Shown here: positions 12,743 to 12,959 of the stretch, piece by piece
How the letters are laid out: the number at the start of each line of letters is the position of its first letter
Position numbering within the stretch: the first letter of the stretch is position 1
Source of the DNA: a virus
Taxonomy: Duplodnaviria; Heunggongvirae; Uroviricota; Caudoviricetes
Length of the DNA stretch: 19,876 nt
Virus record (IMG/VR): IMGVR_UViG_641736225_000038
Direction: 5' to 3' (one strand)
Position numbers and translations under genes: made by a program
Notes under the pieces: model-generated
Told to the model about the DNA's origin: nothing
Databases searched by the model: none
The model's input: the letters and a program-made list of their open reading frames with translations, nothing else

Positions 12743-12959
12743 ACTATTCACTACTATTCACTTAGGTAAAAAAAATAGGTAATACAGAAGGTTATAAGGT
12801 GAAGGGTTGGCATGGCAGTATTCATCGACTGTTCATAACTGTTCACATGGGAATAAAATTATTTATGGTATTTTTTCATAATGGGTGGTTTTTTTATTCC
12901 TCGTAGCTATTTGTTTTTTGCTCCTCACCACTATTCACCCTTATTCAGGAGTATTCAAC
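12743..12959. repeat. Iteron-like phased repeats (TATTCAC / TGTTCA), candidate cis replication region (crr/ori-type)
   Basis: Three clusters of 2-3 copies at 10-11 bp spacing: TATTCAC at 12745 and 12755; TATTCAT 12819, TGTTCAT 12830, TGTTCAC 12840; TATTCACC 12932, TATTCAG 12942, TATTCAA 12952. They resemble the P4 type I iteron TGTTCACC bound by the alpha protein. Confidence 0.5.

Follow-up and report, generated by a model that had tools for sequence, protein, structure and literature searches.

A probable P4-type replication origin and its crr partner in a P4-like satellite prophage of Escherichia coli O157:H7

The DNA analyzed here, the IMG/VR record IMGVR_UViG_641736225_000038 with a length of 19,876 nucleotides (in the following called the window), is, judged by its sequence, a P4-like satellite prophage of E. 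coli O157:H7. Its gene content was read from the RefSeq annotation of strain TW14359, from a list of open reading frames (ORFs) and from scans with Pfam, PADLOC and Rfam. The element is arranged in the order int, a Lamassu/ABC-3C defence hotspot, delta, psu, sid, an intergenic gap, alpA/vis, the isrK and C4/CI RNAs, a DUF5375 gene, alpha and an ORF of 318 aa, after which host genes follow. The subject of this work is the gap between sid and alpA. It comprises 933 bp, carries no annotated gene in RefSeq and is, together with its surroundings, 100% identical to hundreds of E. coli O157:H7 chromosomes. The gap contains helically phased short repeats, for which an earlier reading of the letters alone (the original prediction) had proposed a role as ori/crr iterons bound by the alpha protein, as in satellite phage P4. 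On the left the gap is bordered by a sid homologue, which aligns with P4 Sid over its full length (23% identity, BLASTP E=5e-12) and gives a weak match to the Pfam Psu family, and on the right by alpA, the homologue of P4 orf88/Vis (63% identity, E=2e-39; Pfam Phage_AlpA, E=1e-19). The order delta-psu-sid is the same as in P4. All features are listed in Table 1.

Phased repeats in the sid-alpA gap and their counterparts in P4

The hexamer TRTTCA occurs eight times within 213 bp of the gap, in all cases on the plus strand. The copies form three clusters, starting at 12745 and 12755 (cluster 1), at 12819, 12830 and 12840 (cluster 2) and at 12932, 12942 and 12952 (cluster 3), and within the clusters the start-to-start spacings are 10, 11, 10, 10 and 10 bp. 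An enumeration over both strands of the entire window, which the original prediction had proposed as a check, yielded 39 copies altogether. First-order Markov simulations of the window (1000 runs) yielded no more than four same-strand copies per 215 bp and one pair of neighbors at 10/11 bp, compared with eight copies and five pairs in the real sequence; none of the runs reached the observed values. Simulations with the intergenic region's own composition had the same outcome; an equal frequency of the motif in shuffled or flanking sequence, named beforehand as the finding that would speak against the clusters, was not seen. A scan that was blind to the motif (hexamers present at least three times at 10-11 bp) returned two arrays in the 19.9-kb window, both of them within the clusters described. 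A chance origin is excluded and the predicted phased clusters are real. Two copies had been overlooked in the original prediction, namely an inverted one at 12798-12805, which reads GGTGAAGG on the plus and CCTTCACC on the minus strand, and, directly before cluster 3 at 12922-12929, the additional phased unit TCCTCACC, the fourth of that array.

Table 1. Features of the sid-alpA gap and of the surrounding satellite element (positions refer to the window).
Feature	Position	Strand	Basis or remark
int	4763-5995		P4-like satellite integrase
delta	10998-11270	minus	
psu	11276-11827	minus	
sid homologue, left border of gap	11824-12576	minus	BLASTP against P4 Sid
TGT-N12-ACA dyad	12609-12626		P2 Ogr/P4 Delta activator-site pattern, upstream of sid
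ori core	12727-12850	+	Homologous to P4 ori (ori1) type-1 repeat region; nhmmer, alignment
Iterons 1 and 2 (cluster 1)	12745-12762	+	TATTCACT, TATTCACT, 10 bp apart; align with P4 9413-9406, 9403-9396
Conserved A-rich spacer	12763-12797	+	Contains GTAATACAG; kept in P4 and most of 45 other satellite loci
Inverted iteron	12798-12805	minus	Aligns with inverted P4 repeat 9353-9360 (GGTGAACA)
Iterons 3-5 (cluster 2)	12819-12847	+	TATTCATC, TGTTCATA, TGTTCACA, spacings 11 and 10 bp; align with P4 9338-9331, 9327-9320, 9317-9310
Spacer, ori core to cluster 3	12848-12921		About 73% A+T (composition count); candidate unwinding region
Cluster 3	12922-12959	+	TCCTCACC, TATTCACC, TATTCAGG, TATTCAAC at 10 bp, consensus TnTTCA; lineage-specific array
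PLL-A, promoter-like element	13022-13049	+	Conserved; TTGCAT, 16 nt, TAAAAC; paralogous to P4 late promoter PLL
Three P2-cox-box-like boxes	13350-13392	minus	TTAAAGCCC, TTAAACCAT, ATAAAATGA, phased at 10-11 bp; upstream of PLL-B, about 400 bp past the cluster 3 slot
PLL-B, promoter and leader	13416-13501	+	Immediately upstream of alpA; nhmmer, PLL-leader profile of 35 satellites, E=3e-11
alpA (P4 Vis/orf88 homologue), right border of gap	13510-13770	+	Homology, Pfam
isrK RNA	13842-13919		Rfam
C4 antisense RNA (P4 CI-RNA family)	13988-14075		Rfam
alpha primase-helicase	14879-17212	+	C-terminal origin-binding winged-helix domain, presumed iteron binder; homology, Pfam, PDB match
Orphan cargo ORF, 318 aa	17345-18301	minus	A+T-rich, between alpha and crr unit
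crr-like unit, single, partly decayed	18596-18721	+	nhmmer, alignment with both P4 crr repeats
crr-unit iteron	18601-18608	minus	TGTTCACC (on the plus strand GGTGAACA)
crr-unit iteron	18615-18622	+	TGTTCACT
crr-unit iteron	18684-18691	minus	TGTTCATA
Candidate integrase arm-type repeat	18753-18774	+	AATGTGTATAGGGGTGTGTGTA; direct-repeat family D6, pairs with 4762-4783

In the GenBank record of P4 the replication origin is annotated in the sid-orf88 gap (9086-9809); the 'ori type 1 repeats', six in number, cover 9310-9413, and 9176-9205 hold the three 'ori type 2 repeats'. The type-1 repeats are on the strand that codes for alpha, at a distance of 170-273 bp upstream of sid. Direct alignment of both gaps brought the ori core of the window into register with P4 9437-9304, column for column. 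The repeats of the window start 169 bp upstream of sid (170 bp in P4), likewise on the alpha strand, and each repeat of clusters 1 and 2 has its own orthologue among the P4 type-1 repeats. Both elements thus share the sid-vis/alpA slot, the arrangement of two direct, one inverted and three direct octamers (TGTTCACC-like) at a spacing of 10-11 bp, about 64 bp between the groups, the A-rich spacer and an alpha protein with an origin-binding domain of the 1KA8 type. The iterons of the window are more degenerate, at positions 2, 7 and 8 (TATTCACT twice, CCTTCACC, TATTCATC, TGTTCATA and TGTTCACA, compared with TGTTCACC six times in P4); the minus-strand form CCTTCACC recurs among the iterons of other satellites. 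Further differences from P4 are the replaced T-rich tract upstream of iteron 1 and the length of the gap, which is 552 bp in P4 and larger here owing to a second PLL-type promoter region. The type-2 decamers of P4 (GCTTTAAGTG-like, P2 cox boxes) were not found downstream of the type-1 repeats of the window, where TnTTCA boxes occupy the slot. Since the type-2 repeats vary across satellites, they were treated as a separate module and not as origin-defining. The original prediction had left the choice between crr and ori open; as clusters 1 and 2 correspond one-to-one to the P4 ori repeats in the sid-vis gap, only the ori part of this label applies to them.

A BLAST search of the gap against the phage collection gave no match, distant mode included, and the homology to P4 was seen only by direct alignment. 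From species-representative genomes, 80 loci with a gene for an alpha homologue were collected, and an ori-core profile was established from 26 sequences with the spacer motif, P4 and the window's own segment included. With nhmmer the profile matched the window at E=4e-27 (E=2.4e-28 in a smaller search). Apart from the window, it detected ori cores in 45 satellite loci (P4 counted) from many Enterobacterales, at a distance of about 1.7-2.6 kb upstream of alpha. The alignment of all 46 sequences displays a single conserved architecture throughout. The nearest alpha relative, which is 95% identical and derives from Kluyvera genomosp. 3 (L049), carries a crr unit directly 3' of alpha (9374-9480), and no ori core was detectable within 7 kb upstream of its alpha gene.

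The alpha protein, the crr-like unit and the proposed origin

Over 771 aa the alpha protein of the element shares 73% identity with P4 alpha, and it comprises the Pfam domains Zn_Ribbon_Prim, Toprim_3, D5_N and Pox_D5. Its C-terminus matches the P4 origin-binding domain (PDB 1KA8, E=1e-47). From the predominance of TATTCAC the original prediction had deduced a distinct specificity of this alpha, a tempting deduction that has to be corrected because position 2 of the alpha iteron is free. In the GenBank record of P4 itself, TATTCACC is annotated as a type-1 repeat in crr (4366-4373, 4546-4553). The ori cores of 42 other satellites contain 216 NNTTCANN words, with G at position 2 in 153, A in 37, C in 23 and T in three of them, and TATTCAC(C/T), present in 35 words, is the usual form of iteron 1. 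Position 7 is a C in 201 of these words (93%). Moreover, over its last 105 residues alpha shares 81-84% identity with the alpha proteins of satellites such as L005, L006, L008, L043 and L062, all with canonical TGTTCAC(C/T) iterons, compared with 70.5% for P4. The origin-binding domain belongs to a common subtype that is found alongside canonical iterons. What is peculiar to the lineage of the window is a drift at positions 7-8 of iterons 3-5 (TTCAT, TTCACA), which is common to the close relatives L065 and L052 and to four further E. coli lineages and is a possible sign of weaker sites or of a somewhat relaxed specificity.

The crr of P4 is annotated in GenBank directly downstream of alpha as two 120-bp repeats with five type-1 repeats each. 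Correspondingly, canonical satellites show weaker minus-strand matches to the ori profile directly 3' of alpha, usually two per locus, which represent crr units. A profile of 23 canonical crr units gave one match in the window (nhmmer, E=1.5e-16, model positions 7-133), and the matched unit can be aligned with the P4 repeats along its full length. Kept are the GGTGAACA-N6-TGTTCAC pair, the TGAACAG element and the tail of an A-run and a T-run, whereas the two or three iterons in between have decayed. Its location, past alpha and ahead of the integrase arm sites and att, is that of crr in P4. The unit differs from P4 crr in being a single unit with three recognizable iterons, in place of two units with five annotated type-1 repeats each, and in its distance of 1.4 kb from alpha, with the 318-aa cargo ORF inserted between; L065 and L052 also have one displaced crr unit. 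The second inverted pair of the original prediction (18601-18622) is therefore real and part of a P4-crr-homologous unit, which bears out the proposed ori/crr pair flanking alpha.

A 22-bp direct repeat (AATGTGTATAGG..TGTGT.TA) overlaps the start codon of int (4762-4783) and recurs just after the crr unit. According to the GenBank record of P4, one arm repeat overlaps the int start and the others lie between crr and the attP core. By analogy, the 22-bp repeats are candidate integrase arm-type sites that would bound the element, and this P4-like layout places the crr-like unit inside it.

In P4, alpha binds to the type-1 repeats, DNA looping takes place and crr is required. Taken together, the position in the sid-vis gap on the alpha strand, the homology of the core, the cognate alpha and the second cis element make it highly probable that clusters 1 and 2 with the inverted copy represent the vegetative replication origin of the satellite, the orthologue of P4 ori (ori1). 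Six 8-bp type-1 iterons (consensus T-n-T-T-C-A-C-C/T), two direct ones, an A-rich spacer, an inverted one and three direct ones, one helical turn apart, would be bound by the C-terminal winged-helix domain of the element's own alpha primase-helicase, as expected from the homology with P4. Alpha would then oligomerize on the phased iterons and contact the single crr-like unit, 5.8 kb away and downstream of alpha. Finally, it would open the adjacent A+T-rich DNA and load itself as helicase and primase. For the steps of binding, looping and firing we infer from P4, with which the DNA element, its arrangement and the cognate protein agree. The P4-type origin and its crr partner were correctly recognized in the original prediction, and they are of a kind already known from P4. 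As an origin the locus adds little, since the P4 ori1/crr architecture is conserved across the P4-like satellites of Enterobacterales and the O157:H7 element keeps a recognizable, possibly weakened version of it.

Cluster 3 and the variable boxes beside the origin

Cluster 3 starts 81 bp past the end of the conserved ori core and is thus located outside of it. It was kept in all seven members of the lineage (the window, L065, L052 and four E. coli types), with flanks down to 70-77% identity. In these members T1, T3, T4 and C5 of the boxes are fixed, A6 is fixed in units 1 and 2 (counted from TATTCACC as unit 1), and position 2 varies (A/C/T). In E. coli 2012C-4606 (L401, about 1079-1120) cluster 3 has gained one exact 10-bp unit, TATTCACCAG, compared with its sister locus L402, so that the copy number changes by whole helical-turn units. 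Downstream of cluster 3 lies the promoter-like element PLL-A, in which the GTTGCATTTC and ATAAAA columns are invariant in the seven lineage members. The surrounding stretch was aligned by MAFFT with P4 PLL and its leader; the match of the PLL profile at this point is weak (nhmmer, E=0.026), compared with a strong one at the equivalent first copy in the Klebsiella sp. locus L030 (E=9e-28).

Two binders have to be weighed for this array. The chances are about even that cluster 3 consists of auxiliary, weaker alpha sites acquired in this lineage. Its TATTCACC unit is identical to the type-1 repeat annotated in P4 crr, the fixed positions and the variable position 2 mirror those of type-1 iterons across the family, and the unit duplicated in L401 is a perfect iteron. 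The array is found on the same strand as iteron 5 at a distance of about 7.8 helical turns and on roughly the same helical face as the core. Two observations weigh against alpha as its binder. Units 2 and 3 lack the near-invariant C7 (TTCAG, TTCAA), and the array occupies exactly the slot that Cox/Apl boxes hold elsewhere, upstream of a conserved promoter. Of the claim that all three clusters are alpha iterons, the third array itself was thus upheld and its membership in the conserved ori core was not, and for its binder a second reading competes.

According to this second reading, to which we give a smaller but substantial share of the probability, clusters 1 and 2 stay the origin and cluster 3 is the operator array of an excisionase-type factor, the helper's Cox/Apl or possibly the element's own AlpA/Vis, which would activate PLL-A. 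The factor might polymerize on direct repeats one helical turn apart, by analogy with P2 Cox at the type-2 repeats of P4. Proteins of the excisionase type usually bind to repeats arranged head to tail at a spacing of one helical turn, and cooperative binding of Apl requires at least three adjacent operators (PMC7498355); cluster 3 has four head-to-tail units at exactly 10 bp. The P2 cox-box consensus is TTAAA(G/C)NC(A/C) (PMC3936717). It is matched by the type-2 repeats of P4 (L002, 9176-9205; reverse complement CTTAAAGTCA TTTAAAGCCA CTTAAAGCAA), and Cox binds upstream of PLL. The geometry is similar as well: cluster 3 is located at about -134 to -97 of the inferred promoter PLL-A, the P4 cox boxes at -118 to -89 of PLL, where -90 to -130 would be expected for such an array. 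What cluster 3 shares with P2 cox boxes and 186 Apl operators is therefore the position relative to the ori core and a PLL-type promoter, the head-to-tail 10-bp phasing and a copy number of three to four or more. In sequence, however, TnTTCA matches neither TTAAAGNCA nor TTGCCA and resembles the alpha iteron, with conserved and variable positions that mirror type-1 iterons and not a new motif. In addition, the lineage already possesses a P2-type cox-box-like array beside PLL-B.

The helper phages were sampled with P2 A, 186 Apl and Fels-2 Apl as queries, 80 loci each at no less than 97% identity to the query, so that three excisionase types dominate. Neither TnTTCA or YATTCR boxes nor a phased TnTTC(A/G) array occurs in the 254 P2-like loci examined (2.27 Mb), a weak negative in favor of alpha at cluster 3, as the diversity of excisionases in the sample is low. 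Twelve hand-picked P2-like phage records gave matches to other module types and none to TnTTCA. Pattern scans of IMG/VR for phased TATTC arrays led, among the matches listed, to contigs unrelated to P2-like phages, including metagenome-assembled genomes of giant viruses. A 'YATTCR' array in L030 was considered as a homologue of cluster 3 and dropped, as it aligns with a different part of the window. That cluster 3 is bound by something else than alpha or an excisionase-type protein is improbable.

Beyond cluster 3, most other satellite loci carry a phased array that begins 74-110 bp past the ori core. Eleven arrays of at least four phased boxes were counted in this zone of about 9 kb, compared with two in about 677 kb elsewhere. 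The module arrays of the satellites L004-L056 consist of three to six boxes 10-11 bp apart (e.g., L016 5449-5485, L056 5443-5489, L036 5428-5463). The commonest box is TTGCCA at 10-11 bp, which is identical to the Apl operators that phage 186 has annotated at attP (ATTGCCA TTGTTTGCCA ATAATTACC) and, inverted, at pR-pL. The same TTGCCA arrays are present in Klebsiella phage Kp4886-2. Further arrays of this comparison lie at 576-622 and 2557-2624 of phage 186 (L284), at 57-93 and 3039-3065 of L398 and at 4941-4966 of L389. Box types of the form (A/T)TGCA(C) match Salmonella phage SW9, and AATAAG types resemble Enterobacter phage phiT5282H. The type of module is independent of the satellite's own AlpA: L006 compared with L016/L018 and L043 compared with L004 have near-identical AlpA proteins and different boxes. 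AlpA/Vis was for this reason rejected as a general binder of the variable module; for cluster 3 it remains a candidate, because the lineage has its own AlpA subtype.

The 'ori type 2 repeats' annotated in P4 thus behave as a separate, rapidly exchanged module that matches helper Cox/Apl operators. These observations allow the tentative proposal that the slot about 75-110 bp past the ori core is a hypervariable helper-sensing module, which copies the excisionase operators of the helper (P2 cox boxes in P4, TTGCCA boxes of 186 Apl in most satellites of Enterobacterales and TGCA boxes of the SW9 type in others) and by which each satellite would be tuned to one helper type at PLL. The O157:H7 lineage might then own sensor and promoter in duplicate, as tandem cassettes of cluster 3 plus PLL-A and of the cox-like boxes plus PLL-B, and cluster 3 could conceivably sense a so far unsampled helper excisionase. 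If so, it could be predicted from the sequence which helper switches on which satellite. In the searchable part of the literature on P4-like satellites, no description of such variation of a box module was found. The variable helper-matching module beside the origin, together with the tandem PLL cassettes of this lineage, is the most interesting by-product of the analysis.

The boxes at 13350-13392 lie about 60-70 bp upstream of the -10 of PLL-B, a geometry that resembles that of the P4 type-2 repeats to PLL. Their identity as P2-type cox boxes is suggestive only. Two tandem PLL-type promoter-leader regions instead of one are present in the lineage of the window (12985-13110 and 13416-13501) and in L030 (5189-5325 and 5482-5628). 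The first copy has decayed in the window, with -35 and -10 kept in the seven members, and both copies of L030 are strong (the second with E=7e-36). Between the copies, about 230 bp (13110-13340) are conserved in L065 and more G+C-rich than the surroundings. No Rfam match and no convincing ORF were found in this stretch, which could be a transcript driven by PLL-A.

State of the origin and further features of the element

Several findings weigh against an efficient origin. Iterons 3-5 have drifted at positions 7-8, the first of which is a C in 93% of the iterons of other satellites; the T-rich tract upstream of iteron 1 is conserved in other satellites and replaced here; and crr is reduced to one decayed unit, cut off from alpha by a cargo gene, for which reason the origin could be weak or dead. 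The repeats might accordingly be a non-functional relic in a cryptic prophage, whose conservation results from recent descent within O157:H7. An IS3-family insertion and the splitting of LmuA have disrupted the defence hotspot of the element, the int gene of TW14359 is interrupted by IS1203, and the 100% identity across hundreds of O157:H7 genomes makes these genomes uninformative with respect to selection. We nevertheless regard a relic as unlikely. The drifted iterons and cluster 3 were kept in members with an alpha of 82-94% identity or a local DNA identity of 70-77%, among them Scandinavium, Enterobacter and four other E. coli lineages, whereas the flanking intergenic DNA diverges. In addition, alpha, alpA, sid, psu and delta are all intact ORFs. 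As to whether the origin still fires, the decay of crr and of iterons 3-5 urges caution, and the conservation in diverged relatives speaks against a dead relic.

The region holds divergent late promoters, and the repeats could in principle be integrase arm-type sites or Delta/Ogr sites at these promoters instead of initiator sites, which is hardly credible and was rejected on sequence: the candidate arm repeats are TGTGTATAGG-like here and GGGGGCA-like in P4, neither of them similar to TRTTCA, Delta/Ogr sites are dyads and not 10-bp direct repeats, and the homology with the annotated P4 type-1 repeats is one-to-one. A TGT-N12-ACA dyad does exist upstream of sid, at the position that the corresponding dyad of P4 takes in the alignment, and probably serves as the activator site of Psid. 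A search of the gap with Rfam at a permissive threshold found nothing, and promoter and terminator scans gave no useful signal there.

Downstream of alpA, the isrK and C4 RNAs detected by Rfam fall within an ORF that RefSeq annotates as 'Icd-like protein' (13767-14324), and this ORF call may in part represent an RNA immunity region. The 318-aa ORF has no match in Pfam or PADLOC. In L065 and L052 crr is likewise separated from alpha by about 1.4 kb, which suggests a second cargo slot between alpha and crr in the lineage of the O157:H7 element. No tRNA gene was found within the window. The defence hotspot (5999-10588) adjoins int, and its Lamassu/ABC-3C system appears broken. LmuA is split into the ORFs 5999-6415 and 6388-7005 and LmuB into 9432-10022 and 10022-10588, and the IS3-family element, which contains an ALIL frameshift pseudoknot at 8754-8870, interrupts the hotspot at 7938-9151.

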